Below are positions 1-42,600 of a stretch of 64,000 bases of DNA, one piece after another (the first letter of the stretch is position 1; each line of letters opens with the position of its first letter). Made by a program: the position numbers and the translations under genes. The DNA is from Blasia pusilla (taxonomy: Eukaryota): assembly GCA_050084515.1 (NCBI GenBank), contig CM114271.1, positions 49,848,001 through 49,912,000 on the forward strand. Reading direction: 5' to 3'. A model generated the notes under the pieces. That model was given only the letters and a program-made list of their open reading frames with translations, made no database searches and was not told the origin of the DNA.

Positions 1-2792
1 ACTATCATGCCCGCCAAGAAGGATGTGTATGGCATCTGGACGGATAGGCAGATGTGTGGAGATTACGGATCTATCAATCGGCAGACAAAGTCCAATAGGT
101 ATGCCATGCCCACCCGTGAGGAGATCTTTGATGCGAATGGGCATGCAAAGGTCTTCAGTTCGTTAGATCTTTGAGCCAGATACCATCAACTGCCTATCAG
201 ATTGGAGGACACTCAGAAGACAGAATTTTGGGGCATCAATCCTAACGGGAAGGATTGCTTGTACTAGTGGCGATTCTTACCATTTGGGTAAAAGAATGCC
301 CCTGTTGAGTTTCAGAGGGTTATGGATAGGATGTTGGTAGGTTTGGATTTTGCTAGGTGTTATATTGATGACATAGTAGTCCTTAGCGCCACGGTTGAGA
401 TCCATGAGCGACATGTAGAGTAGGTATTTTAACGATTGCAGTTACATGGGCTGAAGCTACATCCAGGCAAGTGCAAGTTCTTCTACGACCAGATTGAGTA
501 CTTGGATCATACGATATATCCAGGCGGCCTTGGTGTGCAACAGAAGAAGGTAGAGGCTATTTCACGCATTCCACGCCCTACAGATGTGAGTCAAGTTCGT
601 GCATTCATGGGATTGGCAAACTTCTATCGACGGTATAACAAGGGTTTCATTTCGATTGCAAAGCCGCTAACCTTGATGACCAAGCTGGATCAAGAGTGGC
701 ATTGGGGAATGAGCAAGAGCAAGCATTTTAGATGCTCAAGGAAATAATGACGTCCGCTCCCATATTGAGGAGACCAATCACGGGGCGTCCTTTCCAGTTG
801 CATACCGATTGGAGCATGTTGGGGCTTGGAGCCGTGCTCACCGAGCATGACGATGATGGTAGAGAGTTCATGGTGGCTTATGTTAGTCGCTTGAACAACG
901 CTGCAGAGGCAAAATATAGCTCGTATGAGGGTGAGTGCTTGGTTGCAGTATGGGCTGTCGCACATTTCAGATGTTATCTATTCGGCAATCCCTTTACCAT
1001 CATTATTCATCATCAGCCACTTAAGTGGTTGATGGAGTCTGACAAGCTTACAGGGAAGCTTGCGAGGTGGGCTCTTTTGTTGTAGGAGTTTGACTTCTAG
1101 GTGGTGCATAGACTTGGGACGCTCAACCATAATGCACATGGTTTGAGCCGTAATCCATGCCCGAGTCAGCGAGATGCAACTGGAGCTCGTTGGCATGGTG
1201 AGAGTGATGAGGAGTTGGTGCCAGGATGGCATGCGTCAACCTATTTGGGCTTGTTGGCTATGAAGAGCCAGATTGCTGAGACTTCCATGGCGAGTTTTGA
1301 TAGAGAGTCCTTAGATCTAGAAGCCGGTGAGGAGATGACAGGTGGCCAAGATATTCACGATGATGGAGTGGTCTTGGAGTACGTGCATAGTGGCAACGTC
1401 GCAAGCACAGTGGGTGCTAGAGAGCGGGATCGAATCCTATAGCGAGCCAGACGATTCCAATGGGAGGAGACACATATGTTGCGAGTGTGGAAGGATGGTA
1501 GAGTGCATGTAGTGCCTCATCCTTTGTAGAGAGCACGTTTGGTGCGTCATGCCCATGAGGAGTTGGGTCATTTTGGAATGAAGCGGACGTATAGCTTGCT
1601 CCAGATTCAGTATTGGTGGCGAGGCATGCAGACTGACGTTCAACAATTTGTTGCCAAATGCATGGTGTGTGATCGAGTCAAAGTATCGTTCAATGCTCCG
1701 ACTCCAGAGTTGTATCCATTTTCGATCATGGATTTACGTTATAGATGGATTTTGGATTTTGCAGGACCTTTGCCTTAAACGGAGCGCCATAGTCGTTAAA
1801 TGTTGGTGATGGTTGAGCACTTCTCGAAGTGGATAGAGTTGGTTGCATTGACTGACAAAGCGAGTGAGGGAGTAGCGTATACCTTCCTAGATTGGGTGCT
1901 GAGTCATTACGACGCACCAGCTGAAGTGTTGACATACCAGGGTATAGAGTTCCGCGGGGAGTTTCAGGCCTTGTGTGATCAGGCACTAATCGACCACCTC
2001 ACTACTTTGCGAGATCATCTTGAGGTAGATGGACTAGCAGAGTGGGTTGTGCAAATCGTGAAGAGAGGACTATGCAAGTATGGCTTGTAGAGAGGTCACC
2101 TACGAGATTGGGACCTCTAGTTGCTGTGGTTGGTGATTGGATATAGATTCAGTAGGCATGCATCCTTAGCGTCTTTCTCACCGTACTTGCTTTTGTATGG
2201 TCGAGAGCCAAATTGACCTGCGGCCATTCGTCGAGATGTTGGTGCGGTGTTGAACCTTGATGACCCTAATGTATGGATGCGAGTATGTTCTCAGAGGGCT
2301 GAGTTGTTTCAGAGAGTGATGCCCACGGCGTTTGAGACCTTGGCGATTGCGCAACATCGGAATACATTGAGGTATGTGACTATTCGAGGAGGTGGTTATC
2401 GATCAACCATCCGGAGTTTTCATCAAAGAGACTATGCCTACTTGCAACAGTGGGCATCCACGACCTTGGATGTGACTGCAAGACGCACTATCTTGAGAGT
2501 GCATGAGGTTTTGCCATCCGCTGTTCTCTTATTGGAGGGACGCGATGGTATCGTTTGGAAGGACCACGTGCGTAACTGTGCGCCATGTCATCTTCTGAAA
2601 ATTAACGATATAGTTGATTCGAGCTTAGCAGTAGTTCTTGCCGGCTTGTGGTGTATGTTATGTGGTTCCTCCCGTGGTGCAGCCACTATGCTAGTCTATG
2701 ATGGATATTCGAGAGGATGGCATATGGCATGTTTGACGCCACCTCTCATTAGGGTTCTTTAGGGACGATGGATGTATCCCACATGTACATAG
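1..2792 (+). pseudogene. Gypsy pol (RT-RNaseH-INT-PHD), disrupted by stops and frameshifts
   Basis: ORF fragments 436-747, 732-1085, 1101-1442, 1539-1778, 1800-2090 and 2247-2762 are collinear with the copy at 46057-48850. Confidence 0.93.
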
Positions 2793-3745
2793 TGTAGGTA
2801 GTTCTACATTCCAACTTGTGTCTATGACATGGATGACAAGAATGCGACTAACGATGGGGCCACATGAGCACGCGGCCTTCTTGCTCTTAGCGTTTGAGAG
2901 ATGTATGTCATAGTAGGTAGGGATAGATAGCTATCTGGATTTAGAGGGACCTAACCACCAACTAGGGGAGCGATTGGAGATATTTTGGTACTTCTTGTCT
3001 TGTTGTTTGGATGCCATGAGTTAGCATGGGATCGTGCGTGTTTGTGTGTGTGTTCGGTGACAACGATGTATGTTGTGTAGGGATGTATATACGCACGACA
3101 AGTGTCACGCCTTTTAGGATAGATCGGTGAGATCTAGTAGAGCGCCTTCTTGAGTAGTGGAGAACATGCTTAAGAGGTCGAGGATGACCTATTGAGGCCT
3201 TGGAAAACCTGAGAGAGCAGATTTCCCCTTCATTTCGGCTTATTTGGAGCCATATTGAGTAACTTACTATTTTAGGTAATTGCCATTTTGAATATATGAT
3301 CTACTTTTTATTTTTGGTATATGACGCTTGACCTCCTACATCAGGTCAAGAGCCAAGGAGGTGACTTGAGAGCATTGGTTACCATGGAGAGAGTTTGGGG
3401 GAGGGGAGGGGTATACCTCAAGGAGAGAGAGAGTTTGAGAGCTCATTCTCTCTTTGTTGAACCTCTTGGCACGAGGTGGCAGAGTTATGGTCCCTAGCCT
3501 TGTGAGTGTAACCCAAGCCTCTCATTAGGAGAGTGGTTTTGGTTTGACATTGAGAGAGACATGTGAGAGTGCACATATGTGAGAAATATGGTGTTGTGAG
3601 AGAGATTGGATCTTATTTTATTGGAGCTATTTTGGTACTTCTTGTCTCATTGTTTGGATGCCATGAGTTAGCATGGGATCGTGCGTATTTGTGTGTGTTT
3701 GGTGACAGCAATGTATGTTGTGTAGCGATGTGTATGCGCACGACA
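1..3745 (+). mobile_element. Ty3/gypsy retrotransposon copy 1 (PHD-integrase group), 5' part outside the window; ends PPT-B1-ag-A2-B2
   Basis: Decayed RT (CYIDDIV, 358-378), RNase H (FQLHTDWS, YEGECL), integrase (HAHEELGHFG..CMVC, WILDFAGPL) and PHD remnant to stop 2790-2792. Purine tract AGGGGAGCG 2964-2972; B1 2973-3100; spacer AG; A2 3103-3619 starting TGTCA; B2 3620-3745 ending CGACA. Confidence 0.93.
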
Positions 3746-3746
3746 A

Positions 3747-4078
3747 GGAGTTCTGGGAGGACATGGTGTATTTTCCAAGTATCCGATTGCATGGCATTGG
3801 ACTTGCTTGAAGGAAGCGATGAACAAGGGTTATGCATATGATAGGATTATTTATGACCATGCTGTATATGGCGAGGATAGGTGGTGGTCTTATTACCAAC
3901 ACCACAAAGTTGATCCCACACTTTAGACTCCTTTGAGAGACCATATTTCATGGATTTTATTTTCAGGTGGTGAGATGGATTCATTGTGTCTTAACAAAAT
4001 CTTGTGGCGTTTTGGTGGAGTTTGCAGGATAGCCACTTCTGATACAAAGAGGGTTGAGCCTCTTTGAATACTAGGCAG
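3747..4078 (+). pseudogene. Possible plant mobile domain (PMD, aminotransferase-like) fragment, bounded on the left by gypsy copy 1
   Basis: Manual translation from 3747: GVLGGHGVFSKYPIAWHW...DRWWSYY...SWILFSGGEMDSLCLNKILWRFGGVCRI with two stops. It resembles the PMD C-terminal pattern P-x-A-x-x-W...W-x-P-Y...RVLRQFG. Matched by eye only. Confidence 0.45.
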
Positions 4079-8559: not shown

Positions 8560-9556
8560 AGAGTACATAGTTCTGAAGGTTGTTTTAGGTTGTTTCTTTA
8601 TTGATAACCTTGACGATCGGGGCTAGTCTATTTTTTTCCAAAGCAGATTGTGGACATGTGCTTATGGAATCCAAAAGGGAGTTGAGCTGATATAGAAGCA
8701 CTTTTCTCCATTGAAGGTTGTCGTACGCATACATATCGCTACACAACATAAATCGTTGGTCACATCTACACCACACAACACCAATCTTCTCCACACACGG
8801 GTCGATCCACACATGTACAAAAATCAACTCATACATATACATGGAGATCACACAACAAAAATAAAGAGGAGTAAAAACGGCCCACCCGGCCTAAAACTCC
8901 ACTCCTCAATCTACATCGCCATATCGAGCCTCGTCCACCCTGTGTTATCAAGGAATCCGGACGCTAGCACCCTAGTCCTATCTCACACACATACAAGAGA
9001 GGTGCTCCAACGGCCCAACATGAGAAAGATGGCTTAGGACAGCCACCTTCCTCTCTTATATAGGGTTGGGAAGAGCCAAAAGGCTCTTCCCCTAAAAATA
9101 GCCCTCCCCTTGGTAACCTGCGTGCACAGGTTACCAAGGATGGGTGACCTGGTCAACAAGTCACCCGGCTGTAATTAAAAGACCTCAACATGAAAGTTAT
9201 CAGAAATAACGTTCATGACACAATGGACCTATCCTCAACCTCATCCGACACCGTAGGACAAACTTACACTCAAGATAGTCCGCTGGCTCCTACGCCCTAT
9301 CCACGATAGATCTCGGCCTATCGGCTACTCAGATGTGACAGCTGTCGTGCGCATACATATTGCTACACAACATACATCGCTGGTCACATCTACACCACAC
9401 AACACCGATCTTCCCCACACACGGGTCGATCCACACATGTACAAAAATCAACTCATACATATACATGGAGATCACACAACCGCCCCTCTAGCTGGCAGTT
9501 GGATCCCCCAAACTCCAGATAGAAAATATCATATCTCTCTAACATGACCTACTACC

Positions 9557-12500
9557 CTATACACATCTCGGACACATCCATCGTCACGTGGGAACCACAT
9601 CAAGAGGGGAGGTCAGACATGACATATGCCACCCTCGAGAACAACCATCATATACCAACATGGTGGCTGCACCCTTAGCAGATCCGCACAACATAAACCT
9701 CAAGCCTACAAGTACCACTGCCAAGCTCGGATCCACCATCCCATCTACGTTCAAAAGATGACATGGCGCACAATTGCGCACATGATCCTTCCAAACCATA
9801 CCATCCCGTCCCTCCAACATGAGGACTCCGGTCGGTAATATCTTGCGCACACGTAGGATCGTGCGCCCTGCAGTGACATCTAGCGTCGTGGGTGGCGCGT
9901 ATTATAAATACACGTAATCTCTAGGATGAAACCTCATAATCCCTAGACGATAACCTCCTCCACGAATGGTCGCGTACCTCAATGTATCTCTATGTTGGGC
10001 AATAGCTAAGTTCTCAAAGGCCATAGGCATAACTCTACGAAAAACCTCTGCCCTTTGAGAACATGCTTGTACCTAAACATCTGGATCATTAGGATCTAAC
10101 ACCTCCGCCATGTCACGTCGAATCGCTGTAGGTAAATCTGGCTCTCTCCCAAAGAGAAAAAAGTACGGTGAGAATGACGCCAAGGATGTCTGCCGACTAA
10201 AGCGATAACCCATAGCCAACCATGGCAACTGTAGGTCCCACTCCCTCAACTGTCCCCGCTACAAGCCATACTTGCGCAATCCTCTCTTCACCGTCTATAC
10301 CACTCTCTCCGCCAACCCATCCGCCTCAGGATGATCTCTCGACGTGGTACGGTGATCTATCAGCGTCTGATCACACAAGGCCTGAAACTCTCCCTTGAAC
10401 TCGGTACCCTGGTCAGTCAACACCTCCGCCGGTGCACCAAAGTGACTAAGCACACAATCTAGAAACGCATAAGTTGTTCCTTCGCTCGCCTTGTCTGGTA
10501 GTGCCACCAACTCTATCCACTTGGAGAAATGCTCCACCATGACCAACACGTACCTATGATGACGCCCGGTCAATGGCAAAGGTCCCGCAAAGTCTAAACT
10601 CCACTGATAACCAAAACCCATAATCGGAAAAGGATGTAACTGCAGAGTGGGAGCATTGAAGGATGCTCGCACTCTGTCACATACCATATATCTAGCCACA
10701 AACTGCTGTACCCCAATATGCATGGTGCGCCACCAATACTAAACCTAGAGTAAGCTGTAAGTACGCTTTATTCCAAAATGTCCCAACTCCTCATGGGCAT
10801 GTCGCACTACACGTGCTCGCTGGGAAGGATGAGGTTCCATTTGTATCCTACCATCTCCCCATACCCGCAAAATATGAGTCCCCTCCCACCTGAACCTCTT
10901 GGCTCTCTGTAGGATCCGATCCCGCTCCCTAGCACTCACTGTACTTGCTATGACGCCAGTGCGCAAGAACTCCACAACCTCCACGTCATCATGGATATCA
11001 CAACCACCTGTCGCCTCCTCACTAACCTCCGGATCGAAACACTCATCATCCAACCCCACCACTGGAGTCATCACCTGTGACTGACCTGCCATAGTCAACC
11101 AACAAAGATACGCAGATGCATGCCAACCAGGCACCATCTCCTCATCACTCTCTCCGTGCCATCGAGCTCCTCTGTCGTCTCTCTAACTCGGACATGGGTT
11201 ACGACTCAACCCATCCGCATCTTGGTTCAGCCGACCTGGCCTATGAACCACCTCAAACTCATACTCCTGTAGTAATAGAGCCCACCTGGCAAGCTTTCCC
11301 GTAAGCTTGTCGGACTCCATCAACCAAACCTCGCTCTTAATCATCTCTTCTCCCGAGTGATAAGTGTGAAAGGGTTGCCGAATAAATAGCACCTGAAATG
11401 TGCCACGGCCCATACTGCAGCCAAACACTCTCCCTCATAGGAGCTGTACTTTGCCTCTGCAATGTTGTTCGATCGGCTCGCATAAGCCACAACGAACTCC
11501 CTCTCCTCGTCATCCCTCTGAGTAAGCACTACTCCTAGACCCAACATGCACCAATCCGTATGTAACTGGAATGGGGACCCCTAACCAATCTCTGTAAAAC
11601 GGGTGAGGACGTCAACCTGTCCTTGAGCTCCTAAAATGCTCGCTCTTGATCATCTCCCCACAACCAAACCTGATCAAGTCTCGTCAACAAAGTCAAAGAC
11701 TTTGCGATCGTACTAAAACCCTTGACATACCGTTGATAGAAGTTCGCCAGTCCAAGAAATGCTCGGACTCGACTCACATCTGTAGGGCGTGGAATCTGCA
11801 CAATAGCCTCTACCTTCGTCTGCTGAACGCCTAACCCACTCGGGTATATGATGTGTCCCAAGTACTCAATCTACTCTTGAAAGAATCTGCACTTGCCTGG
11901 ATGTAACTTCAGTCCATGTAACTGCAATCGCCGAAACACCTCCTCCAAGTGTTGCTCATGCTCCTCAACCGTCGAACTGAAGATAAGAATATCATCCATG
12001 TAACATCGTACAAAATCCAAGCCAGCCAGAATCCTATCCATCACTCTCTAAAACTCTACAGGCGCGTTCTTCAAACCAAATGGTAAGAACCGCCACTGAT
12101 ACAAGCAATCTCTTCCGAATCGATCTATCCCCCAGAAGGTTGTCTTCTCCCTGTCCTCCAATCTGATAGGAAGCTCATGATAGCCAGCACAAAGATCTAA
12201 AATACTGAAGATCTTTGCATGCCCTACCGCATCAAAGACCTCCTCAGGAGTAGGCATGGCGTACCGATCTGACCTCATCTGTTAGTTGATAGGACGGTAA
12301 TCTCCACACATCCGCCTATCCGTCCAATTGCCATACATATCCTTCTTCTCCGGCATGACTGTGGCATATGCATACTCCCTATGTGATAACTCCACAAGTC
12401 CTGCCTCCAACAAGTCCTGACTCCTGCTCTGAATCAAGGCTCGCTCCATATCAGAATACCTAGACCCTTCAGCGTACCTAAGTCTCTCATACTAAAGGCA

Positions 12501-15500
12501 AAAAAATTGACATGCCCTCTCAAAAACCTATGAACTTGCCGTCGCTCTCCTCCTATCAACTTGAGACCTATCACAGGCTCCCATCGTGACCTCACTTGGA
12601 GAGGACGCAACCTCCGGCTTTGGTTGCTTTGTAGCAACCCTAGCCACCTCCGCAACAGCCACTCCACTCTAACCTCCTACACCATGCTCCACATCCAAAA
12701 AATGAACATGTGCTACTCTAGCCGCTTTCGCACTCTCTGCTCGAACGACGTCCCAAGAAGTCCATGGGTGCCTATCTCTCCTTGTCTCGCCCCCAACCAA
12801 TGCCTGTACAGACCCTTTAGGCAATGGTCCAACTCGTGGATGTGACGGCATGGATGACACTCGCATCCGTCTCTGCTTAGCCATACCTAGGCTGACTATC
12901 CATGTGAGGCAGTTGAGGTCCATCGCCTGCCCCAACACCTATCTCCGGGATGCCTCAGTGATCCCTGGCACCGCCGTAGTACCGGTAGCAAACCCCATGG
13001 CACGCTCGCGCTCATCCCAAATCATGCTTGGCCCTCCTTGACGAAAGGCATGGGATGCTGGGAAGCTCACCAACGTAAGTAAGGCTGCTCTCAACTCCCC
13101 CATCCTATTCGCCATGGCCAACGGTGGTCTATCATCCCGTGTCACCACTTGAGATCGACGGCCTGAGCCCAAAATAGCATCCACTGTGAGATGTGGTGCT
13201 CTCTGGACTCCATCGTATGCTTGACTCAATACCTCTGATGGTATCAGGTTCGTCCACCACAGTCGTGGACGATGGGCACGTGATCCAACTCTTGCCGCAT
13301 CTAATAATATAGCAGGTCCCAACCAAGACCTCACCTGATACACACTCGTCATTAGACATGCACGAGTGTCTCCCAAAAACGGCACGTTCTCCAAGATGTA
13401 CGTTGGAGAACATGTCAGACTCTCTAGTTAGTGTCGTACTACTCGCAACATCTCCCAAAACATCCCTGATCTCGGATCTTGCAATCCAAATCCTCGGCTA
13501 GCTGATGAATGAACCTGACATGGCCATCCAGAAATCACCAAATGAATGGTGCCAACTCTATCCAGATCCTGCGCCCCCACCAAAGAGATGTCGGCGCGTA
13601 GCGTATGTTGATATCCCCGTATCGCAGATACCGGCAACAACTTAGGATACCTCTGGACCAATCTGGCCACGTGACGTAATGATACTCGCCGCGCGGTCTC
13701 ATCTCTCTCCAGATAAAGGTACTGATGCACCCGTATGCCCGCCTGCAATACTGCAGCCAATCCGGTGCTAATCCCTTCGAAGAGATCTAACACCCTAACA
13801 CCCTCCTCTAGGCACTACCACACAACGGGTGTGGTATCCACTCGGGTCAACATCTCCACTCCAAGAGCCCGATCGCCACGTGACTCTCGCTGCTTCGGGA
13901 TAAAAGCATGACTCCACGCCTGCCTCACGAGGTCGTTGGCACTCCTCTGTAGCTCTTGAGTCGTACCCCATAATGGTGAAGAGGTCTCGCTAACATGGGA
14001 AGAGACACCCGCCATGGCCAGTCTCTCCGTGGGACTATCCGCTACTGGGACATCCTCCGCATGTGTGTTCCCCTCCAACAACTCTCCTGGCCAACTAACA
14101 CTACCTGTGAAAGCCGCCAACGTGGTCATAGACTCGCCTCGTGATCGACCACCTGGTTCGGCAAACTGCACGGGTAACTGACTCATCCGGCCGTCACCTG
14201 ACCGCCATCTTGGTTGATAAGCAACGGTCTCCTCCTAGAAGTCAAGGATGAATCCTCGGGGATATAACATTGTACTCCCCACCAACACATCGAACGAGTC
14301 AGCTGGTGTCGTAATTGCACGTGTGCGCACCATAGCACTATCCGTCTCATGCTCTGGCAAGACTCTGACAACTATCTCCTGTCGAGTCATAGACTGCGTG
14401 GGTGACACGCCCCCAATCGAGGTGTGTATCTGGAAGGGACAAGGTTCAATGTCGGCCTTCCGTAACCCCAACGCTAAACACGCCGCCTTCGCTAACATCA
14501 AGGGTTACGCTCCCAAATCAAGTAGGACGCGTTGCGGGTGGTATACTATTCCCGTCGGACTAACCAAGCAAAATACTCCAACTCGGTTATTCAGTAACAC
14601 TACTCCATGTGTCACTACTGCTCGCTCTATGGCCGGTCAAGCTGGCATATCTACCAACTTCGCCGCCCCCGCATGCCATGACTCTGTGGGGAACGTCCCG
14701 AGCACCAGCTCCTCAACCTATGAACAAAAAGCAATCATCTCTCCACGCTCATACAATATGGCGGCCAACCGGAACACCTCAGCTGGTCCAAGTCCCAACG
14801 TCGCCAACTCTATGGCGGAAAATAGTGGAGTCTGACTCACTCTGATGGCCATCTCCAACACTATGGTCGACACTGACTCCACTCGAGCCGGCATAGGAGT
14901 TGTCACTCCAACTCCTCGTGACGTCGACGTAGGTACCTGAGCTGTACGCACCGTTGGTCGTCGAGGCACCATCGATGGTGTCTGTAGTGCCTCCGACAAT
15001 GTGAATGACTGTGGAACCCTGGCCTGCCGCCCATCGATCCCCTCTAGTGGGTCAATCTCAACTCCACCTCTTGGTGCCTCTCGTAGCACCCCGAGTCACC
15101 ACTGCAGCTACCTCAACCAGGGCTGCACTACACATAAACCCCAAACTGGCGAGATCCTCACCCGGGTCAGGGTAAGAGGTAGAAGTTGGAGTCACACTAG
15201 CTGCTCGCAGCTCCGTGTCTTCCCTAAGCTACATTATCGTCGTGGCAGCAATCCTCTGCTCCAACTGATCGATGCGTGAGAGAAGTGCTGGATTTGGTGC
15301 TCCTACTCCATCTCCTCTGGCTGGTGGTGGTCCTATACCACCACGTCCAGGAAGGACTTCGTGACCTCCTTCAGGTCAACCGCCCCTAGGCCCTCGTCCT
15401 ACCTCTGGAGGTGCCCCTCGGCGAAGGTTAAAACATCTATCCCTAGTGTGACCATATCTGTGGCAATAGTCACACTGGTGCTATGGTGGGGCCATCCTCT

Positions 15501-16629
15501 ATAGCTCTTGAGCAATCGGAGGCACTGGTGGTCCTCTCCCATGCTGTGGGTTGTCTCTCTGCCTATGGGCCCCTCCACATGTCCAACAAGACCACATTGG
15601 TCCCTGCTAGGCAACATATGTAGGTACGGGTGGTTGCCTCATAGGCTCATGGTACTCGCCTTGCTCTCTGGGCACACTGGCCCACTCCTGTAGTACTGGT
15701 GCTCACTGTGGCACCTGTGGGGTCACCGTCGCTCATGGACCCGTTGACTCTCGAGAAAATCCAACGGTCACTACCTGCTCCTCACTCATGTTGAGCTTAA
15801 TACGCTCAGACAACTCAAAGACCACCTTCAATGTGGGCTTCGCTGTGTGAATCAGCACCGCATCTCGGACTCTCCTCCATAGTTCTCGGTCTAGAACCCC
15901 GTACCAATATTGGACTGACTGCGCCTCAGTCACTCCATACGCAGCAATGATCAACCTCCTCATGCGTGTGAATGCCTCTCTCAGACTCTCATCCGATCCT
16001 CGCTGAAAATCATGTAGACTCTTCAGCTTGTCGGTGCATACGCCCTGGTAGCTCTTCCCCAACTGTCGGAAGAACTCCACTGTGGGGCTGAAGCTGGGTG
16101 GCCCTCTACCACCAGAGGTCTCTGCCACACCGCCTGTCTCACTACCCTCCTCTACATCTAGTCTCCGGGTTGATGGTGTGGGTCTCTCTCCTCTCACAAT
16201 CCTATCATATGCCTTGCGACCACTAGTGGACACATACCCTGGAGCCCAATACATCCTCCAAGCATTGATCTCTACTGAATATAGTGATCAAAACTCCATG
16301 TAGTCATCCATTGGAGGACCCTCCAAGTGTTGTAACAACCCCTTCCATGCCATGAAAGGGTTGAACCGTATCGGGGTCTGTATCTCTTGGAAGTTGCACC
16401 ACGTGTCGAACTCTTGGATAAAATCATCTAAGTCGATGGTGCGCACTGCACCCGCAAAACAACGCATGCCCCGATGGCCCATGTCGTCCATCTCCTGCCA
16501 AGTACTACTCTCTTTGTCTGCGATCTCGTCACCGGACCCAGTGTCTAGTGATGACAATCCAGCCACGGATGGATGTCGAGGTAGCTCCTCACTAGTAACC
16601 CCTTGGTATCTCACTCCACTCCGTGTCAC
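9557..16629 (-). pseudogene. gag-pol of copy 2: Gag (CCHC-like knuckles about 15420-15590), protease (about 14235-14530), DNMT (about 12905-13796), RT (YMDD about 11992-12003), RNase H, DDE integrase, PHD
   Basis: Collinear ORF fragments 16288-16629, 15733-16254, 14235-14501, 13428-13793, 12939-13394, 12048-12278, 11631-11861, 11341-11547, 10745-11137, 10295-10723 and 9584-9850. Confidence 0.92.
12905..13796 (-). pseudogene. C5 cytosine DNA methyltransferase domain (DNMT3-like motifs) inside the retrotransposon pol
   Basis: Motif I VLDLFEGISTG, II YLYLERD, IV ISGWPCQ (catalytic Cys), VI YILENVP, VIII RAHRPRLWWTNL, IX ERERAMGF, X RR*VLGQAMD, in canonical order. Confidence 0.9.
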
Positions 16630-17855
16630 ACCACTACTACTGCTCGCACTACCCCGTTCTTCCGAACCCTGGAAGAACGCCGTGATGACAAACCCTGTCT
16701 CACCCGCTCAAGCACTCAAACTCACCAAGAGTCTCGCACACGCCTCACTAGCTCACCTATACTAACATCAATCCCGTGATGACATACCCGGCCTCACGCA
16801 CACTCAACACTTGGGCTCACCAAGTGCCTCCCAACTGACTCACCTAATGTAGCGACACTCTCTCAGGTCATACACGCGACTCCTACTCGGAAATTGTCGT
16901 ATATCCACCAACATGCTACACATGAAAAGAATCTACACTTGTCACCATCGTTGCACCCACCTAGCACCAGCTACTACCCGCTACCTAGCACTCTCAATCA
17001 CACACGACAAGTGCAGGAAAAGGGACTCGAATGGGTAACATGATCACGCCCTCCAACTTGCTGCACCGTCAACATGCACTCCTTCACGTAATATGATAAC
17101 CTCGACAACACAATACTCTCCTCGACCAACATGTCGATCCTCCCGTCAACAGATGCGGACAACCTCTCGGCATCATGCGCACTGCCCCTCCATCTTCAAC
17201 TCTCGCAACGCCCTGTCGCGGCCCAAAAACATCATATCGCGCAAACCTCTCCGTCCATCCCCACACGCGGCATGTAACTGACTCACCCTGGTTGGCTCCC
17301 ACCTACCATGTATGCCCTGTCCGACCACGTGAACATGATCTTGACCACATCCGGACTCTCAACCACGTCGCCATCCAACCACGTTCGATCCTACCACGTT
17401 GGAGGGGGGAAACCTGGCCTGTGGCCCTATGCGAGCCCCTTAGGCCCTAAATGTGCGGGGGGCTTGGCCTGCATCCCTATGGGCCTCCCCAACTTTTAGG
17501 GAGGGAGCAATAAATGATGGGGGGGGGGGGCGCCGCCGTAACCCTAGCCTTCGCGACCTAACCTAGCCGCCTTTACTTGATAGCCCCCCGACGGCTGCAA
17601 AACCCAAACCTGCCCTTTTCTTCTCTCTCCCGACACCCTCACTCGCGTACACCCGCCGCCCTACCACACACTACACTCGACTGCTGTCCCACGTCAATCT
17701 GTACCAGCAAAATCTAAGAAAAACAGACAGCGCTTCCCCCACGGCCTTTCGAACAAAAAATGACAAATACGACGCCAACCAACGTCTCCACGGGCTCCCG
17801 ACCAAGGCAACTCGTTTGCCTACCTGCAAACAACAAATTCCCACCAGCCCCTTGA

Positions 17856-17869
17856 CATCTTTCTCATGT
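17856..17869 (-). promoter_or_regulatory. Putative self-priming primer-binding site of copy 2
   Basis: Element-strand ACATGAGAAAGATG directly after A1 is the exact reverse complement of element-strand CATCTTTCTCATGT at 18044-18031, which lies about 25 nt downstream of TATATAA (18075-18069). Confidence 0.75.
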
Positions 17870-18345
17870 AAAAATAAAGAGTAGTAAAAACGGCACACCC
17901 GGCCTAAAACTCCAATCTTCAATCTACATCGGCATATCGAGCCTCATCCACCCTGTGTTATCAAGGAATCCGGACGCTAGCACCCTAGTCCTATCTCACA
18001 CACATACAAGAGAGGTGCTCCAACGGCCCAACATGAGAAAGATGGCTTAGGAAAGCCACCTTCCTCTCTTATATAGGGTTGGGAAGAGCCAAAAGGCTCT
18101 TCCTAAAATAGCTCCTCCCTTGATAACCCACAAGACAAAGTTACTAGGGCGGGTGACCTGGTCAACAAGTCACCCGGCTGTAAAAGACCTCAACATGAAA
18201 GTTATCATAAATAACGTTCCTGACACAATGGACCTATCCTCAACCTCATCCGACACCGTAGGACAAACTTACACTCAAGATAGTCCGCTGGCTCCTACGC
18301 CCTATCCACGATAGATCTCGGCCTATCGGCTACTTAGATGTGATA

Positions 18346-23121
<4,776 letters not shown>

Positions 23122-24423: not shown

Positions 24424-25563
24424 GTTTTAGGCCTTGCGTGATCAGGCACTGTTCGGCCACCGCACCACTTTGCGAGATCATCCTGACGTGGATTGACTAG
24501 CGGAGAGGTTTGTGCAGACGGTGAAAAGAGGACTACGCAAGTATGGCTTGCAGAGAAGTCACCTAGGAGATTGGAACCTCTAGTTGCCGTGATTGGCGAT
24601 GGGATACACATTTAGCAGGCAGGCATCCTTAGCGTCTTTCTCACCGTACTTGCTACTTTATGGCCGAGAGCTAGATTTACCTACGGCCATTCGTCGAGAT
24701 GTTTATGAGGTGTTGAACCTTGATAACCCTAATGTATGGATGTGAGCATGTTCTCAGAGGGTTGAGTTTTTTTGGAGAGTGATGCCCATGGCATTTGAGA
24801 ACTTGGCGATTGCGTAGCATCAGGATACGTTGAGATATGCGGCTATTCGGGGAGGTGATTATCGACCTACCATTCGGAGGTTTCATTAAGGAGACTATGT
24901 CTACTTGTAGCAGACGGCATCCATGACGTTGGATGTGAATGTAGGGCGCACCATCTTGAGAGTGCGTAAGGTTTTGCCATATGTTGTTCTCTTGTTGGAG
25001 GGACGCGATGGTATGGTTTGGAAGGATCATGTGCGTAACTGTGCGTCATGCCACCTTCCTAAGATTGACGGTACAGTTTATCCGAGGTTAGTAGTAGTTC
25101 CTGCAAGGTTGCGATGTATGTTGTGTGGTTATGTCCGTGGTGCAGCCACTATGCTAGTCTGTGATGCATGTTCAAGAGGATGGCATATGGCATGTTTGAC
25201 ACCACCTCTCATTAGGGTTCCTCAACGACGATGGATGTGTCCCAGATGTACATAGAGTAGGTAGTTCCAGATTTGGACTTGTGTCTATGACATGGATGAG
25301 AAGAAGGCGACTAACGATGAGGCCACATGAGCACCTGGTCTTTTTGCTCTTAGCGTCCGAGAGATGTATGTTATGGTAGGTAGGGATAGATGGCTATCTA
25401 GAGTTAGAGGGACCTAACTACCAGCTAGGGGGGCGATTGGAGATATTTTGGTATTTCTTGTTTCGTTGTTTGGATGTCATGAGTTAGCATGGGATTGTGC
25501 GTGTTTGTGTGCATGTTTGTTGACAGCGATGTATGTTGTGTAGCGATGTGTATGCGCACGACA
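24424..25563 (+). mobile_element. 3' part of gypsy copy 3 (INT C-terminus, PHD, PPT, single B repeat), split by the CACTA insertion
   Basis: Starts mid-integrase directly after the CACTA TIR (GTTTTAGGCCTTGCGTGATCAGG, compare 1961-1983). PHD in ORF 24923-25255; purine tract AGGGGGGCG 25427-25435; B 25436-25563 ending CGACA; no A repeat follows. Confidence 0.88.
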
Positions 25564-26674: not shown

Positions 26675-29600
26675 ATGAGTGTCGAGCCCTTTCGCCGGTG
26701 CGTTTCATCCCGTAAATGTTCCCATGGCTTTGTCGAATTTTGAGCACATCGAGGAGAGGGTAAAGAAAACTGAGATTGTCTCCTGTTGAGTCAATCACAG
26801 AGAAGGTGGAATGAACCGACTTTGTCATGCGAGTGAATATTTGTGGTGGTCCGCTGTGCAGTTTAGTAAAGCTGGTGGCAAGGGCCTTTTACGATGAAGA
26901 AATTCCACCGAAGGGAGCTAATCGTAGCAAGTCGGACAAGTCAGATAACAAAGGAATCGCTGTTGTCATTCTTGATGCTCTCACGAGAAGGCAGTGGGTG
27001 AAAGAGGAAGATCTGGCGAGGGACTTACGGTTGCATCCAAAACAGCTGCGTCGGACGCTACGGGTTTTAGAAGAAGAGCTTCTGATTTTGAGGGAACACC
27101 GCCGCGAGGTAATTATGGGTCCAATTGTAGTAAACTTGAGGTGCTCTTTGTCCTCTGGATAGAACTGATGTGTTGCAATGATTTCTCCTCGTTGTGTAGA
27201 CCGTGAAGGGTGCGAAGTTATACAATGCTGCAATTGCTGCAGTCAGTGAGCAACCAACGGAGAGAGAGGGTGAAGAAAAACTCAAAGTTCACACGCATTC
27301 TTACTGCTGCTTAGACTACGCGCAGGTGCACGTTTCCCCCATGCTCTTTGCAGCTTTGAGGCGACTGGAATTCGTATTGTGTTTGACAACGAGAGGAACG
27401 CAGATTACCATTCTTGGTACATAGAGCGCAATCGTTGGAACCCATTAGGGTTCGGGATATGACAGAGGCGGGTTTATAGAATGCTGAAGTACTGGATTCT
27501 GAGGAAGGCCGGTTGTGGATCTTTTATGGGTACAAGGAGTTTGCAAAAGTCTATCGGGATTGTATGGGACCTTTAAAGGCAGAAGCTGAATGGTAACTCC
27601 GAAGTGGAGATTCATGCTCTCGTTCTACTGCTCAGCGACGGTCCTTTCCTGTTCTGCAGGTTTTTGACATTGTTCGGTATCGGATACACCGGTCGAAGAA
27701 GAAAATCAAAGATGAATTGGAAGATAGGAATACGATCCAGGAGTATATCTGCCCCAGTGCTACTTGTGGACGCCGGTTAGTGTACTTCTGCTGACAAACT
27801 CTTCGGATTCGGTAACGTTTGTTAGGAATTGGACGTCATTCTTGGCGAAACCCCTTCGTTGATGTCGGTTTTTAGCCTAGACTAGTTTGGCAAACTTGCA
27901 GCACTGTTCTGGAGCAGATACATCGAGGCAATGAATCTGAACGGGAGATTGTCTTTGGCTATGCAGATACTCAGCACTGGACGCTCTGCGTTTGATTAAC
28001 GTTTTTGATGGGAACTTTCACTGCGAGAATTGTGATGGGGAGCTCGTCGCTGAGAGCGATAAGTTAGCTGCTGCAGAGCTGGGTGATGGAGATGGGGAAG
28101 ATAATGCTCGTCGAAGGAGGAGGGAGAAGCTGAAAGAGCTTTATGAAAAATTGGAGGTGAGAAGTTAGGGTTGATCTGTATGTTTCGGCGTTCAGTTAAT
28201 TTGATTATTGCACTCTACTCTTCACTGCATATCTTTCCTGGCTCCTTGCTTTCACTTCGTATGTTTAGAGTCTCCTCTGGTTACTCGGCTCTTTGACAAT
28301 GAAGGAGCTGTATCTATGTGTACAGAAACAATTGAAGCCCCTGGTGGACCAATTGACCCGAGTGAAGGACTTGGCTCCGCCGGATTTTGGTAGCTTGGAG
28401 GCCTGGGAAAAGAGGGCCATTGCTGCTGGTAGAATACCTGGGAATGATGCCTCATCCAGTGATCTGCCAAAGCCATCACATGGGCAAGGGATATCAGGAA
28501 CACCTATGCCATTTCTGGGAGAAACAAAGGTAAAGAATGTTCTGTTATCAGTTTGGACGTTAATTTTTGTAATCAGTTTTCCCTCTAATATCGTACTGCA
28601 AATATCTGTACTGCACACAGATGACTCTTGGTTCAGTTCCGTTCTTCTTAGTCTCCAGTGGGCAGACTTCTTGTGAACTCATGGACTGATTGTTGGCTGT
28701 CTTTGCATTGTTTAGGTGGAGGTGGCATTGGCTGGAGGGGATTCCAAGAAGGAGGAAGGTGTAGAAGAGGCTGCACAACTGAAGGTTCTACCTCCATGGA
28801 TGATCCGTCAAGGCATGACATTGACAGCTTCTCAGAGAGGAGAAGGAAGGACTGAGGTAAAGACTGAAGATGGCGCAATACCTACAGACCTGGATGTGAA
28901 GGATGTGAAACCTGCAGAAGAAGACAAGGAGGAAGTTCAGCGCAGAATTCAAGAGGAATACCTCAAAGCCTATTATGCAGCCCTCTTGCGTCGACAGCAA
29001 GAATCTGAGCAGCCAAATCCTGGGCCAGAACGTGTTGAAAATGGAGACTCAACTGCCAAGCCCGGAGAAGTAAAAGAAGAGCGGCAGGTTGGAATGAAAG
29101 CCAAGAGAGAAGATGGCGAAGAAGAAGAGGAGGAAGTTGAATGGGAGGAGGATGCTGCTGCAACAGGTATGGGCCTTAGTTTATGTATGCATCTGAATGG
29201 GATTCTAAGGGAGCATTAGATTTAGTGTGATCTCTATTGCTTATTGAAATGTGTTTCCTAACTAGGCGGTATTGACCCATAGCCCTGTAGCTTCTTAACC
29301 ATCAGTTTTACTCATAGAGCTCATCGCTCAACAAATCAAGATCGGAAGAAGGTGAGGGAGTGAGTAATCATTTTCTAAAAGTTAGTAAGCCTTCCAAGGT
29401 TTTGAGTAGAGCTTTGAAGTCTTTCAGATGACCATACCCAATCAAAAGTCTACCTATTTGTGATATTGTAGACTTTGACATGGGACTAGTAGAGAAGGAC
29501 GGGAATGTTCCTTCCTTCTGAAGCACAACAATTGCTAATTTTGTTTGCACAAGTCAGAAGCAGGACAAGTACCTTAATGGATTCTATGGTGGCATACAGG

Positions 29601-36718: not shown

Positions 36719-39679
36719 TCAGACGTTGGAAGGGGAGTCGTGGCCTGTGAAGTCATCCGTGTAGTTTTCGTACGGTTCTGACTCAGGAAAAGAGTCTCCC
36801 ACTCGGATTTCATCCATCAGGTCCACCAGTTGCGCCATTTTGGGGCGCTGCTCAGGGTCTGCTATCACGCAAGCCATGGCAATTTGGAGGAGAGTCACCA
36901 TCTCCTCCTCTATGTGCCTGTTGGACTTGAGCTCCACATCAAACACCTCCGCTGTCCACTCCTCTCTCACCACTGATTGCACCCATTGGGGAAGGTCAAT
37001 GCCTTCTTCTCCGTGCGCCAGTGATTGTTTTGGCTGACGACCTGTGTAAAAACCACTCATTCAAAAGCGTACTTCAGAAATACACACAATTTTCCCATAC
37101 ACCGAAGCCTCGTTCGATTGTCTGATTCTTGGCACTTCAATCGACACTGCTGTTGAAATGCGAATTACGGTCGACAAAAATGCAGTCTTTTCTCAGGAGA
37201 TGACGGTACAATTTGTACGATGGCGTTTTAGTTTCCATCACGGAATTTCGTGGCACGAGACCGCACAAGACACTCAAAGCTCGAAACAAAGAAGTCTTCT
37301 CACATTTTCGGAGTTCAAATCGCGTATTTGTTCCACTGCAGTTTCACAGTTCAGTAAGAATTCTTACCAGTCAAAAGCTCTAGCAGGAGAACTCCGAAGC
37401 TGTACACATCGGCCATCTGAGTGATGCTTTTCGTCTGACTATATTCCGGAGCTCGGTAGCCCGCGGTGCGCTGCGTTGCCATGGCGGGACTCATGAGATA
37501 AACCAGACCAAAGTCCGAAATGCACACCTCGAAGTTCTTGCCCAGGAGAATGTTGGTTGACTTTATATTCCCATGAAACACCTTCTCGAAATCGCACTCT
37601 TTGTGTATATAGGCAAGACCCGCGGCTACTCCCCGAGCGATGTGAACGCGGGAACTCCAATCAAGTGCACTTCGTCCAGGGCCTCTACTACCTGTGTAAT
37701 ACAAATCATCAATAGCTTGGCGTTCTCCCTGTGATCATCGAGTCCCTGGATAGGTAATGGCAAGAAGATTTGCAGAAGTGCTTCTATACGTCATACAGGG
37801 AAGGGAGCTCCATCCACACACACGACCAGATAGAACACCCTGTATTTTCAGACCGTTTCTCAAGAAAGAAATTAATGCAGAGTCGTGGCAGCAATTGTCA
37901 CTGACTTATTCTCACAAACATGAAAAATAGCTTAGTTCAGAATGACTTTGCTTTGTAATTGAATACGGCTGCACTGTTGAGAAGACGGTTCTTCAAAGCA
38001 TCGTATGGGCAACGGCAAACGCTAGCAGACATAACCATTCCCACGCTAATGATATGAGTGCTTTCTCCCAAGCCTGCTGTAAGTAACGCCTGTGAGGCGG
38101 CAATCGTCTCGTGCTCCTAAGGCATTCTCGAGGGCCTCCGCGATCTCGACCTGACTCGAGCTCCACATGAATCCGCTGTTGCCGAAGGACGGCTAGAGCA
38201 GAATTGGTGGACAACAACAACCGACATCAGACATTGGCACAAATCACGGGACAGCAAGTTGATGAACTCTCGGTTGGGGAACTCACCATGAAGCAGGGTG
38301 AAGAGGCTGTGATTCGTCATGTAGTCGTACACAAGAAGTTTTTCCTCTTTCGCATAGTAGTACGCCCGCAGTGGCACGAGATTTGGATGCCTCAGCTTTC
38401 CTAGCAACTCCATGTGCCGCTCGAAATCCTTCCTTCCAGGATCCTTGACGTCCCTCAGCCTCTTCACAACTACTACCACTCCGCTTTCTACAACTGCTTT
38501 GTAGGCGGTGCCGAAGCTGCCCTTTCCAAGCATCTCCGCAGACGCTCGCAGTAGTTCTTCCAAATAAAACCTTTGCGGCGCGTCTTCAAAAAAGATCAGA
38601 TTGGATGAGTCATCCTCCAGGCTCTGAATCGAAAGATGTGAGGACGATCGACTACCGTTCAACTTCCCGTCAACAACTCTGTTCGTGGGCTTCTTCTCGT
38701 CTGCATACCTGGGACTTCTCCTCCAGTAGTAAGCGAAGAAAAAGATAACGACCATCACAACGAGAGTATCTCCCACTACAATTGCAACTACTGCCACCGT
38801 ACTCAGTTTAATCTTCGTACTCTCTAGCACTGGCTCGATCGAGGGAGATGGTGACGGATTGTAGATTGGAGAGATCTCATCAGGGGCTTGAGCAGCAGAT
38901 GGACACGCAGGTGACAACGGCTGGCCGCATAACTCTGAGTTTCCAGCGAAAGAACTTGAGGGAAATTTGGACAAAGAGGCTGGAATTTCTCCACCCAGCT
39001 GATTCCATGAAAGGTTAAGAGCTCCGAGAACGTTACTGGTTATGAGAGGAATCCTTCCTGTGAAAGAATTGTTCTCCAGATGAAGAAGAAGCAAGGATGA
39101 TGAAGCATTCAGATCAGGGATTTGACCGGACAACTTGTTGACAGACAAGTCTAGATTCGACAACCGCCGTGCAGTCGACAAGAACTTGGGGGCGGGACCA
39201 GAGAACTGGTTGTTTTGTAGCCACAACTGCGCAAGACCTGTGCAATTTGACAAATCTGGGATTGCTCCCTTCAACGAATTGAAGGAAAGGACCAGCGTTT
39301 GCAGCTCGTTCAGTTTGCTCAATGTGTTCTCCGCAAACGTACCATTCAGCGCGAGATTGTTCAAGGTAATTTTACTCACACGAAACCTGCGGTTACATTG
39401 GATTCCTTTCCACTTGGAGATCGAGCCATTGGAACAAGGATCATCTCCAAACCAAGACTGGTTCAAAATACCATTCGGGTCAGCCGCCTCTTTGAAAGCA
39501 AACAGACCTTCGGCATCAAGAGTGAGATGCCGAGCGTCACAGTAGTTCAACAAGAGCAGAGCTGAAACCAGCCCAACAAGGACGAATTCGAACCTGCAAC
39601 CCATTCTGATAGAGGAATGCCTCGCACTGACTGAAGCCAACGGAGGACGCAACGATCGCCTGAAATCGTCCCTGCCCAT
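36719..39679 (-). CDS. Leucine-rich repeat receptor-like kinase, LRR-III type; exons 39679(or 39604)-38287, 37691-37368, 37041-36719
   Basis: Signal peptide, W..DPC..WKGIQC cap, about 5 LRRs, [13 protein letters not shown] helix, [68 protein letters not shown]. Two phase-1 GT-AG introns. Confidence 0.95.
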
Positions 39680-42600
39680 GGAGATTAAATTGATAGCGAG
39701 CTCGAGCTGAGGGCTACAGTCCTCACGAAATGAAGCCGTTGCCAGTCAGGGGAAATGCCTCGATTCAGTCGTGAGAAGGTTTGCATTCTAGTCTTGTGAC
39801 ACCTGCGCATCCAACAGCCGAGCATCAAGATTCCTGACCATCATCTACCTGCAGCCACATTGAACTAACTATTCACGCTTCAATTAGATTCTAACATTTT
39901 GAAATCTTGTCCGGCCGACTACCGACGAGTAGTACGGACGAGAACTACTTTAACGCTAGCCACTGTTACTACGTCTACGTCTTCGGCGGAGCTCACAAGC
40001 TGCAAAATGCTTCTCCAACTTCAACTTGTAGTAACATATTATCACCTTCAGTTCCACCACTCTGCACCTGCAATCGCAATGGGTCTTTAACTCTAAAGAC
40101 ATCCTGCCCGCAATCGGCTCGAGATCACTAACGGTTAGAAATCTTCCTTTCCGCAGCGTTCAGTTGTCACCTGCGACCAATAGAACTTACAAAAAATTTC
40201 AGAGCCCACGAAGCTATGAGTGAGATCTCGCCTTCACGGACGACTGCTCTCTCTGACGATGTCCGATGTCCATGTTGTAGCAGCTGCGTGCAACTACAAG
40301 AGTGATAAAGCACTTCTTCGCTTCCCGCGCATTTCCCATCCCCTGTTCGTCCGTACTCATCGTCTTCTCCCCTTCTTTCCTGCCGATCTCAACCTCGAGT
40401 GCAGCCAATTCGTCGAGTCATCTCAAATTCGAGCTTCCGCTATTCATCACAGTTATCCAGGCTCCGACGACTATACAACCGCGGTTGGTCTCACCGTCAA
40501 TTATAAACTAATTCTTTCTGGCTCCCGGGGTACTACCGGCTACTTCATGAGTCATTCCCGGAGATAACGTCGATCTCTCCCTGGAATCAGCCGTCTGTCC
40601 ATCAATCCTCTCGCACTAATTTACCCACCTGGTTCTCCCGGGGAAAACATTCCTCTCCGCATCACACGAATACATAGTCTCCGTTCGGGAATCGGGAGCT
40701 GAACCTATAGAGAACAGGCAAATTGTACGGGTTTCGATGGAGTTGGTCCAGTCCAATGAGTGAGCTGAATTTTGCTGCTTTTCCCGTCTTGGGGCTCATG
40801 TATGGGGAAAGAGTCCGAAAGACCAGCCGCTAAGAGACCCCTGTCTTAAAGAGGTTGGCGCACGTGGCACGGCTGAATTCGCAGTAGTTTTGCCACGTAA
40901 GGGAGTCTTCGTTATTTTTCCGTTGCTAAAGGCCTCATGATACCATCCGAAGGCTGGTATCGGCGGATTTGAATTTCGGGCGACTTTGAGACCGTTGGTG
41001 GTGCATCCGGGGTTCGAGGGTCGGGTTTGCGCGATCGTCGCGACTTGCGCGTTGTCGCGACGTGGAGTTCCTCTCCAACGTTCGTGCCTTCGCCCTCTGC
41101 CACGACGTCTATCCAATCCACGTTGCTTTACTTCTCAAGTTCTTATGGGGATGGAAAACGCGACTTTTTCTCGAATAGATTATGATCCTGTGATTTTCTT
41201 TTCAATCGTATTATGCATTAAAACAAGGTTTTACAGATATTATTAGAAACACATGTCACGTTACAATATCATTATTAATTATTTAAGAGTATGTTGGGAC
41301 TAGTTAGCATGCCTGCACACGAAAAGGATTTTTTCATAATTTATAAATTTTCATTTAAATCTTTTAATATAATTTTTTAATCTTAAAATAATAATATTTT
41401 TAAATTTTTAAATCACGTAATTTTTTAATTAAAATTTAAGAAATAATATCGAACTCTCTTATATAATTTCATCCCTCCATAAGAGTTAAAACAATATGTA
41501 TTTTTCTTACCAAAGTAACATTCATTAATTAAATCACTATTTAATTTTAATTAATGAAATATTTTCCCTTTTTATTGAAATTAATTTTCCTTTCCAAAAA
41601 TATCAAATTTTCATTAGTATGATTCTTTTTAAAACTAATCATGTTTTTTGTTTCAAAATTTACACATAAATTTTACTTTTTAAATATTTAAATAATAATA
41701 ACATTCCACTTTTTCTAAGTAATTTTATTCCTTGAGTTAAATAATACCCCATCCCCTAAGTAATCTCAATCCTTTAATAAAGTTTAAAAAACACGTATTC
41801 CTCCCATCAAAGTGATACTTAATAATTAATCTTGATTAATAAATTTCTCTCTCTCTTCCATTCAAAATCATTTTTCTTTCGCATCACGTGTGAATAAAGG
41901 GAAAAACAAAATTTTGTTGTTATTTTGTTTTATCGTATATTTAGGATCGCCCATTATAATATAGATATTAGTAATGACTCTTTAAGAACATAGGAGGTTC
42001 TTCTTAAACGCTCGATTTCTCCGATCCATTAATTCTCCATTACTAAAAAACCTTACTACATCCTCCAACAATCCCATTTTTCCTGCCAATATGTGACCTT
42101 AAGGGGAAAAATTAATACCATGGTGTTATTTTGTCTTACAATGTCATTTTTTTCATGTAGAGTCTGTCATTATAAGATAGATTAACTCATAAGGTCCATG
42201 GGATGTTTGGTTTTAAATGGTTATTTTCAATTTAAAATTATAAATAAATTTTACTTTTGGGATTTTTTTGCAGGCTCAATGTTGGAAAAATATTATAATA
42301 TTGTTGGAGGATAAATTTTCCAACTATGTTGTTGACAAGTATCCACCTATAATGTTGACAATTGATATCAAACATACTAGGGTTTGATTTTCTCACCATT
42401 TCCCATTTATATATTTCTTTTGTTTATTTTCATTCATATTATAAATCCAATTTCTATCATATTTTAAACAATATGACATAAAATTAATTTTAAAAATACA
42501 ACCAAAAAATATTCTTACCTTTTGTAAAAAAAAGATTGTTGTAGTAAAAGCTAGACAATTAAAGGAATTGAAATCTATAGAGATCAAAAAGTAAACATGA

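Follow-up and report, generated by a model that had tools for sequence, protein, structure and literature searches.

A cytosine-5 DNA methyltransferase (C5-MTase) domain lying within a retrotransposon raises the question whether the enzyme is a genuine part of the element or a fragment left there by accident. This question was addressed for a 64,000-nucleotide stretch of Blasia pusilla (assembly GCA_050084515.1, contig CM114271.1, positions 49,848,001 to 49,912,000; hereafter called the window). An initial annotation, made from the sequence alone, had placed such a domain between the protease and the reverse transcriptase (RT) of a gypsy retrotransposon. The results point, with a probability of about 0.85, to a decayed Gypsy-type, integrase-bearing retrotransposon (copy A), whose family carries a DNMT3-type methyltransferase (MT) built into gag-pol. 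As judged from the published description, it is of the same kind as KnitGypsy-Dnmt3 of Klebsormidium nitens (de Mendoza et al., 2018; PMC5890265), now in a liverwort-like host.

The methyltransferase domain and the element that carries it

The MT of copy A was read on the minus strand in a single frame of 318 residues, with no frameshift inside. All motifs follow in canonical order and on the same strand as pol, as had been proposed: DLFEGISTG (motif I), GWPCQ with the nucleophile Cys (IV), ENV (VI), RAHRPRLWWTNL (VIII), ERERAMGF (IX) and VLGQAMD (X). The residues themselves were read in frame, and the numbering and the roles assigned to the motifs follow textbook usage. The interval 12905-13796 delimited at first spans motif I to motif X, and homology extends the domain by about 20-45 nt beyond each end. 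A Pfam search with the translation gave a match to PF00145 above the cut-off (E 4.6e-7, 30 bits against 22), and the predicted structure described below has the class I methyltransferase fold with the C5-MTase layout. The MT of a second copy in the window (copy B, ~49430-50360) also matched PF00145 (E 2.5e-7, 30.9 bits). In an alignment of family members including copy A, Cys99 (of PCQ), Glu142 (of ENV) and Arg182 (the first Arg of RxR) were invariant in 32/32 sequences. It was thus confirmed that copy A contains a complete and collinear C5-MTase domain, far beyond what chance would produce.

Copy A is an element of 9.6 kb on the minus strand. Six-frame Pfam analysis and tblastn with relatives revealed the order gag, protease (PR), MT, RT, RNase H, integrase (INT) and plant homeodomain (PHD) finger (Table 1). 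The location of the MT between protease and RT of a Gypsy-type pol was thereby established, and it recurs within single open reading frames (ORFs) in relatives. In copies A and B, PF00078, PF17917/PF17919, PF17921 and PF00665 succeed each other, which is the Gypsy-type pol order. No tyrosine recombinase was detected in copies A and B with the phage-integrase Pfam profiles at E<=0.01, the DDE core (rve) being present instead. The relatives' protease domains match PF13650/PF13975, and their active-site tripeptide is DSG, where copy A has DLG followed by a stop.

Decay of copy A is evident. Two in-frame stops interrupt the MT (13428-13430 and 12939-12941) and a third one lies directly upstream of the domain (13815-13817), in agreement with the annotation of this copy as broken by stops. 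Aligned to intact relatives, the element contains about 25 stops and shifts frame four times or more. Copy A is unable to make the enzyme, and there is hardly any prospect that it encodes anything functional.

Table 1. Coordinates of the retrotransposon copies in the window and of their parts (PR, protease; MT, methyltransferase; INT, integrase; A and B, terminal repeats)
Feature	Position	Strand	Evidence and remarks
Repeat A1, copy A (5' terminal repeat)	17870-18343	minus	97-98% identical to A2
gag, copy A	15079-16491	minus	tblastn with relative P0003, residues 1-449; 8 stops; frame differs from PR-MT
Aspartic protease region, copy A	~14163-14651	minus	tblastn with PR segments of relatives and frame translation
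Linker of ~115 residues without known domain, copy A	between PR and MT	minus	
C5 DNA methyltransferase (DNMT3-like) domain, motifs I-X, copy A	13814-12861	minus	frame reading, Pfam, PDB matches, predicted structure
RT (RVT_1, PF00078), copy A	11847-12314	minus	Pfam E 1.5e-27
RNase H (RT_RNaseH), copy A	11347-11577	minus	Pfam E 3.2e-20
Integrase, copy A	10328-10828	minus	H2C2 10664-10828, E 3.7e-11; DDE core rve 10328-10609, E 5.4e-14
PHD finger at the integrase C-terminus, copy A	9563-9691	minus	Pfam PF00628, E 1.9e-5
Repeat B1, copy A	9336-9480	minus	94% identical to B2; purine-rich motif directly before
Repeat A2, copy A	8857-9338	minus	repeat comparison
Repeat B2, copy A (3' end of the element)	8712-8856	minus	repeat comparison
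Copy B, from a related subfamily; domain order and repeat layout as in copy A	45101-56796	minus	Pfam, tblastn, repeats
Repeats of copy B	B2 45101-45228; A2 45228-~45740; B1 45743-45870; A1 56298-56796	minus	
Copy C, truncated by the window edge: RT-RNaseH-INT, then B1, A2, B2; an MT, if present, would fall beyond the edge	1-3747	plus	tblastn, repeats
Repeats of copy C	B1 2973-3102; then A2; B2 3620-3747	plus	

Copies A and B show 57-79% nucleotide identity across their coding segments, and the MT of copy B is split across three frames. This second MT-bearing copy, together with an elevated depth of DNA reads over the MT, bears out the claim that the group is multi-copy. Between gag and PR of copy B, a segment of about 1.3 kb (~51241-52523) has no counterpart in relatives and is probably a nested insertion. 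Elsewhere in the window a solitary integrase fragment belonging to this group of elements was found at 24425-25252 (plus), and an A-repeat-like stretch at 57884-58060, which is 80% identical to 3103-3279, represents further debris of the family.

The same data bear on whether the region is instead a host gene, either a domesticated or a canonical DNMT3, lying beside transposon remains. No support was found for this possibility, and its probability is negligible: the MT is in frame and collinear with PR and RT, lies inside the terminal repeats, is interrupted by stops and is present in multiple copies in the reads. Canonical DNMT3 proteins are described with companion domains, namely PWWP/ADD in animals and a domain of unknown function (DUF) in land plants (text of PMC12344493). 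None of these gave a Pfam match at E<=0.01, whichever frame of the element was searched, the only reader domain detected being the PHD finger of the integrase, and at the same threshold the region of copy A contains no Pfam domains other than those of the element.

Ranking among methyltransferase families

The affinity of the MT was investigated by comparison with protein structures. Using the single MT sequence as query, phmmer against all PDB chains ranked DNMT3A first (E 2e-8), followed by DNMT3C and DNMT3B, with domains-rearranged methyltransferase (DRM) at 4e-3 and HaeIII and HhaI at 0.02-0.07. A profile built from 32 family members increased the distances, giving DNMT3A at 4.4e-29, DNMT3B at 1.6e-26 and DNMT3C at 2.3e-26, against 2e-16 and 2.6e-13 for DRM, 2e-9 for M.HhaI and 4e-7 for DNMT2. 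No DNMT1 chain was retrieved in the profile search at E<=0.01.

The alignment to DNMT3A is collinear from motif I through motif X. DRM enzymes are circularly permuted, with motifs VI-X preceding motifs I-IV. DRM chains align only query residues 4-127, the N-terminal third, with their own C-terminal residues ~226-348, which is exactly what this permutation predicts.

A structural model obtained with AlphaFold2 from the 32-member family alignment was of high confidence (predicted local distance difference test, pLDDT, 90.9; predicted template-modelling score, pTM, 0.90). Foldseek retrieved 219 PDB matches at E<=0.001. The top listed ones were all catalytic domains of DNMT3A/3B/3C, with E values around 1e-16 and 20-23% identity, and the TM score, normalised by target length, reached 0.70-0.79 for isolated DNMT3 catalytic domains. 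The earlier assignment, that the motifs resemble DNMT3 and are not permuted as in DRM, is therefore upheld by sequence as well as by predicted structure. On these rankings DNMT3 appears to be the nearest of the C5-MTase families, and 'DNMT3-type' is used here as a statement of ranked similarity. With the animal enzymes the domain also shares the short segment between motifs VIII and IX; it differs from them by the low identity, by the absence of PWWP/ADD and by being embedded in a retrotransposon polyprotein.

Relatives, architectures and selection

Searching with the MT identified 44 longer proteins. Nineteen of them carry a species name and all of these are from bryophytes: 16 from Marchantia polymorpha, one from Calypogeia and two from Sphagnum. 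Identity over the MT amounts to 69% for Calypogeia fissa and 44-52% for the two Sphagnum proteins, while the 16 Marchantia polymorpha proteins show 46-71% in the best local alignment and 56-67% where nearly the whole query is covered. In databases these bryophyte relatives are labelled as hypothetical protein or, in UniRef, as DNA (cytosine-5)-methyltransferase. They hold PR-MT-RT-RNaseH or gag-PR-MT within single ORFs. An exhaustive search of the protein library with the MT returned 2422 representatives with E<=1e-3, of which 612 reached 1e-10 and 169 reached 1e-30, and many of the matches are polyproteins of 1000-3400 residues. A scan with the MT alignment also gave 80 metagenome loci; these are partial matches, with 21-44% identity in their best segments, and resemble unrelated C5-MTases, and they were left unused because the search pattern was too general.

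Domain maps were drawn for 201 family proteins. Fifty-nine have the MT upstream of RT (type I) and 84 carry it after RNase H and before the integrase (type II), the remaining 58 being too short for assignment. All 19 named bryophyte proteins are of type I, and the named chlorophyte proteins (two of Scenedesmus, one of Monoraphidium) are of type II. These chlorophyte and metagenomic polyproteins, with the order RT-RNaseH-MT-INT-PHD (e.g. 'pol' of Scenedesmus sp. PABB004 and MNEG_11595 of Monoraphidium neglectum), belong to the same MT family as copy A (33-45% identity, E down to 1e-67) and share with it the Gypsy-type RT-RNase H and the PHD finger C-terminal to the integrase. They differ in the place of the MT, which is between RNase H and integrase there and between protease and RT here. 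Two type II polyproteins (P0322 and P0323, RT-RNaseH-MT-INT-PHD) are complete ORFs in EukProt transcriptome assemblies, and therefore some algal members are transcribed. Among the named matches no Klebsormidium protein was present, in searches limited by word sharing and by length; one of them, restricted to proteins of 1652-4715 residues, yielded type II polyproteins of algae.

Both trees are quick, unrooted searches, in which most rows are unnamed metagenome proteins. In the maximum-likelihood tree of MT domains of at least 300 residues (122 rows, shorter assigned proteins being left out), a single branch (SH-aLRT 98) divides the 42 type I from the 80 type II sequences. Copy A is placed within a clade of 13 rows with support of 100, together with Calypogeia and Marchantia proteins. 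A tree of 52 RT-RNaseH stretches recovered the same single split between the two types, again with an SH-aLRT of 98. The simplest reading of these trees is one capture of the MT by a Gypsy lineage with a PHD-bearing integrase and one later relocation within pol, in either direction. Such a congruent split would suggest an unusual and datable domain shuffle.

The strength of selection was estimated from copies A and B as the ratio of nonsynonymous to synonymous differences per site (pN/pS), using codons in the frame of copy A, skipping gaps and stops, with 95% bootstrap intervals. The ratio was 0.33 (0.27-0.39) for the MT (284 codons; pN 0.234, pS 0.709), in comparison with 0.25 (0.19-0.32) for RT (219 codons; pN 0.143, pS 0.578), 0.21 (0.16-0.27) for the integrase (289 codons; pN 0.141, pS 0.662) and 0.52 (0.43-0.62) for gag (308 codons; pN 0.342, pS 0.659). 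Saturation of synonymous sites and drift of both copies after their death each raise this ratio, so the MT was constrained. The domain was therefore under past purifying selection, comparable to that on the replication enzymes, while the family spread.

Since copy A is decayed, it was also considered whether a host DNMT3 fragment had been picked up by chance, or is nested, in this copy alone without being a feature of the family. Nothing was found in favour of such a capture, for which the chance is minimal. Copy B, in spite of its divergence from copy A, has the MT at the same place, and the 19 named bryophyte proteins show the same order in single ORFs. In addition, the MT and RT trees agree, and the pN/pS of the MT indicates constraint.

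Reads of a DNA run with the same species label were mapped on the window. Depth was 31-60 over three MT bins, 100-480 over RT and INT bins, and 1.6 in the lowest bin. As the read threshold of 95% favours the conserved RT and INT, the ratio between these depths is not a ratio of copy numbers. Among the 10045 reads on copy A, 9737 were 95-99% alike and 308 at least 99% alike to it. This puts the number of MT-bearing relatives diverged by up to 5% in the tens. Differences between reads and copy A (8700-18500) were biased: 258 places showed A>G or T>C, against 101 with C>T or G>A. Copy A hence has A/T where its relatives have G/C, as expected from deamination of methylated cytosines. The observed/expected ratio of CpG, at 0.69-0.78 in the elements and 0.66 in the whole window, does not discriminate.

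Three RNA runs (6-12% of each) were mapped in the same way. Over the RT-INT bins depth was 0.1-10.4, in the orientation expected for sense transcripts. These reads come from relatives, because nearly all of them are 95-99% alike to copy A. From this pattern of RNA depth, expression of copies with an MT can be neither demonstrated nor ruled out.

Terminal repeats, published elements and possible function

The ends of the elements depart from the layout of a plain gypsy retrotransposon. In element orientation the layout is A-coding-B-A-B in both copies that have two ends (2/2), and B-A-B in all copies that have a 3' end (3/3). In copy A, the A repeats measure 474-482 bp and the B repeats 145 bp; one B lies on either side of the 3' A, and none lies beside the 5' A. 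By their identity of 97-98% the A repeats behave like long terminal repeats (LTRs), yet the extra B is found on both sides of the 3' A in all three copies. The designation as gypsy retrotransposon is retained for the Gypsy-type domains, the terminal repeats being arranged otherwise than as two plain LTRs. The copies combine split direct repeats with a DDE integrase in place of a tyrosine recombinase.

Directly before B1 a conserved purine-rich motif was observed in each copy (approximate positions, element orientation): CTAGAGGGGCG in copy A (9481-9500), CTAGGGGGACG in copy B (45871-45890) and CTAGGGGAGCG in copy C (2955-2972). It resembles a polypurine tract that is located ahead of B and not of A. 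By inspection of the copy junctions, no primer-binding site of tRNA type and no target-site duplication were recognised.

The A repeats of copy A are only 2-3% apart, yet the copy has more stops and frame changes than such divergence predicts. It may have been defective already at insertion, or the repeats may have been homogenised. A joint between 9480 and 17870 in the DNA reads (20+22 reads, the best-supported row) was considered as a solo-LTR, deletion or circle junction. This reading was rejected, because B1 repeats B2, which directly abuts A2, so that reads of an ordinary B-A junction map in this manner.

Retrotransposons which carry a DNMT are established in dinoflagellates and in Klebsormidium (de Mendoza et al., 2018; PMC5890265). 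KnitGypsy-Dnmt3 has later been named 'Gypsy-DNMT3' of streptophytes (bioRxiv 10.64898/2026.05.21.726589), and retrotransposon DNMT3s of 'streptophytes' are mentioned in passing in that preprint and in PMC12344493. As far as the available text of the 2018 study describes it, KnitGypsy-Dnmt3 resembles the elements of the window in having a non-rearranged DNMT3-like domain inside the Pol ORF, Gypsy-type domains and a streptophyte host. The figure legends present A-coding-B-A-B as the DIRS layout and as common to KnitGypsy-Dnmt3, and the copies in the window have it too. Purifying selection is a further likeness, with a published Ka/Ks below 0.2 against the pN/pS of 0.33 obtained here from two decayed copies. 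The hosts differ, an alga there and a liverwort-like land plant here, and the likeness rests on the published description and not on sequences. SymbioDIRS-Dnmt3 of Symbiodinium, as described in the same study, likewise has a DNMT3-type domain in Pol and A-coding-B-A-B repeats; it differs by a tyrosine recombinase in place of the DDE integrase (rve). The authors regard the acquisitions of DNMT3 by SymbioDIRS and KnitGypsy as independent.

The elements thus belong to the known Gypsy-DNMT3 kind in a new host group, and the position of the domain within Pol is possibly new for this kind. In the literature searched (open-access full text without supplements) no description of liverwort or moss members was found, nor were the gene identifiers of six Marchantia relatives found in open-access full text. 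That a multi-copy group in a land plant is notable, as initially stated, still holds; its novelty is reduced, as the kind was published in 2018 and bryophyte members are already in public protein sets. Retrotransposons equipped with an enzyme that hosts use for silencing have been a published curiosity of dinoflagellates and one charophyte alga. The streptophyte kind is now seen in land plants, namely in Sphagnum and in liverworts, and 16 or more annotated proteins of Marchantia polymorpha belong to it. Marchantia being a tractable genetic model with good methylome tools, the role of a transposon-borne DNMT3 is addressable there. Moreover, MT domains borne by such elements can pass as host DNMT3 paralogues in counts of gene families.

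A number of observations weigh against the reading of copy A as a relic of a family with a built-in, DNMT3-type enzyme. The three copies that the window contains are all dead. The PF00145 match of copy A is partial and covers only profile positions 48-118 of 324. The term DNMT3-type rests on ranked PDB matches and not on phylogeny, the trees containing no canonical DNMT3, DRM, DNMT1 or Klebsormidium sequences; the published trees cover only the Klebsormidium copies. With a pS of 0.71 for the MT, synonymous differences between copies A and B have reached saturation, which makes the ratio rough. The three RNA runs gave zero depth over 12951-13931 at 95% likeness. Finally, the domain of KnitGypsy-Dnmt3 produced no methylation in yeast, a result that its authors call inconclusive (PMC5890265).

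This last result also bears on a different view, in which the MT is kept by the family without methylating DNA and acts on RNA, or has a DNA-binding or structural role in the pre-integration complex. Besides the inactivity of the KnitGypsy-Dnmt3 domain in yeast, it may draw on RNA methylation having been raised for another retrotransposon DNMT in the text of the same study, in which, on the other hand, SymbioDIRS-Dnmt3 domains methylated CG in yeast (PMC5890265). In the family of copy A, all 32 aligned members retain the catalytic Cys together with Glu in ENV and Arg in RxR, the best matches by sequence and structure are the DNA-methylating DNMT3A/B/C, and the tRNA enzyme DNMT2 ranks 22 orders of magnitude worse. 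A role other than DNA methylation is thus improbable. Intact family members are, with somewhat better than even odds, active DNA methyltransferases.

In intact members, the protease would release a product containing the MT, or the MT would be active within the polyprotein. With S-adenosylmethionine as methyl donor, the enzyme could then methylate the element's own cDNA or the neighbourhood of integration, and the PHD finger of the integrase could steer integration. Methylation of cDNA or of insertion sites has been proposed for DIRS-type elements (in the text of PMC5890265). Self-methylation of cDNA, which we infer for intact members, is inapplicable to the dead copy A.

The PHD finger of copy B is intact (Pfam E 6.7e-10). 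It matches the PHD fingers of CHD4 (5e-16), PHF12, KDM5B, KMT2D, KAT6A, DPF3, ATXR5, PHF21A, AIRE and UHRF1, many of which read the unmodified tail of histone H3. By analogy with the chromodomains of chromoviruses, a role as integration-targeting module is plausible.

A wider proposal combines these elements: bryophytes would harbour still-selected, split-repeat integrase retrotransposons, in which a DNMT3-type MT has moved once, leaving the junction of RNase H and integrase for that of protease and RT, and is accompanied by a PHD histone reader on the integrase, and of which intact members methylate their cDNA or landing sites. Taken as a whole, this proposal is tentative and rather doubtful. 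If true, de novo methylation in land plants would have a so far overlooked source in these elements, and the numbers of DNMT genes counted in Marchantia and Sphagnum would be too high.

The surroundings of the elements agree with a land-plant host, as had been supposed. An ORF at 38117-39745 (minus) encodes a leucine-rich repeat (LRR) receptor kinase, whose nearest proteins are from Marchantia paleacea (54%), M. polymorpha (52%) and two Riccia species (52% and 51%), while proteins of Calypogeia, lycophytes, ferns and seed plants rank behind Marchantia and Riccia. This ranking places the host in or near the liverworts, outside the species just named. The kinase part appears to extend past this ORF, probably across an intron. 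An open frame of 167 residues at 28716-29219 (plus), rich in Glu and Lys, may be a host-gene exon. At ~20040-20280 (plus) a long CT/TC dinucleotide microsatellite reads (SL)n in two frames.

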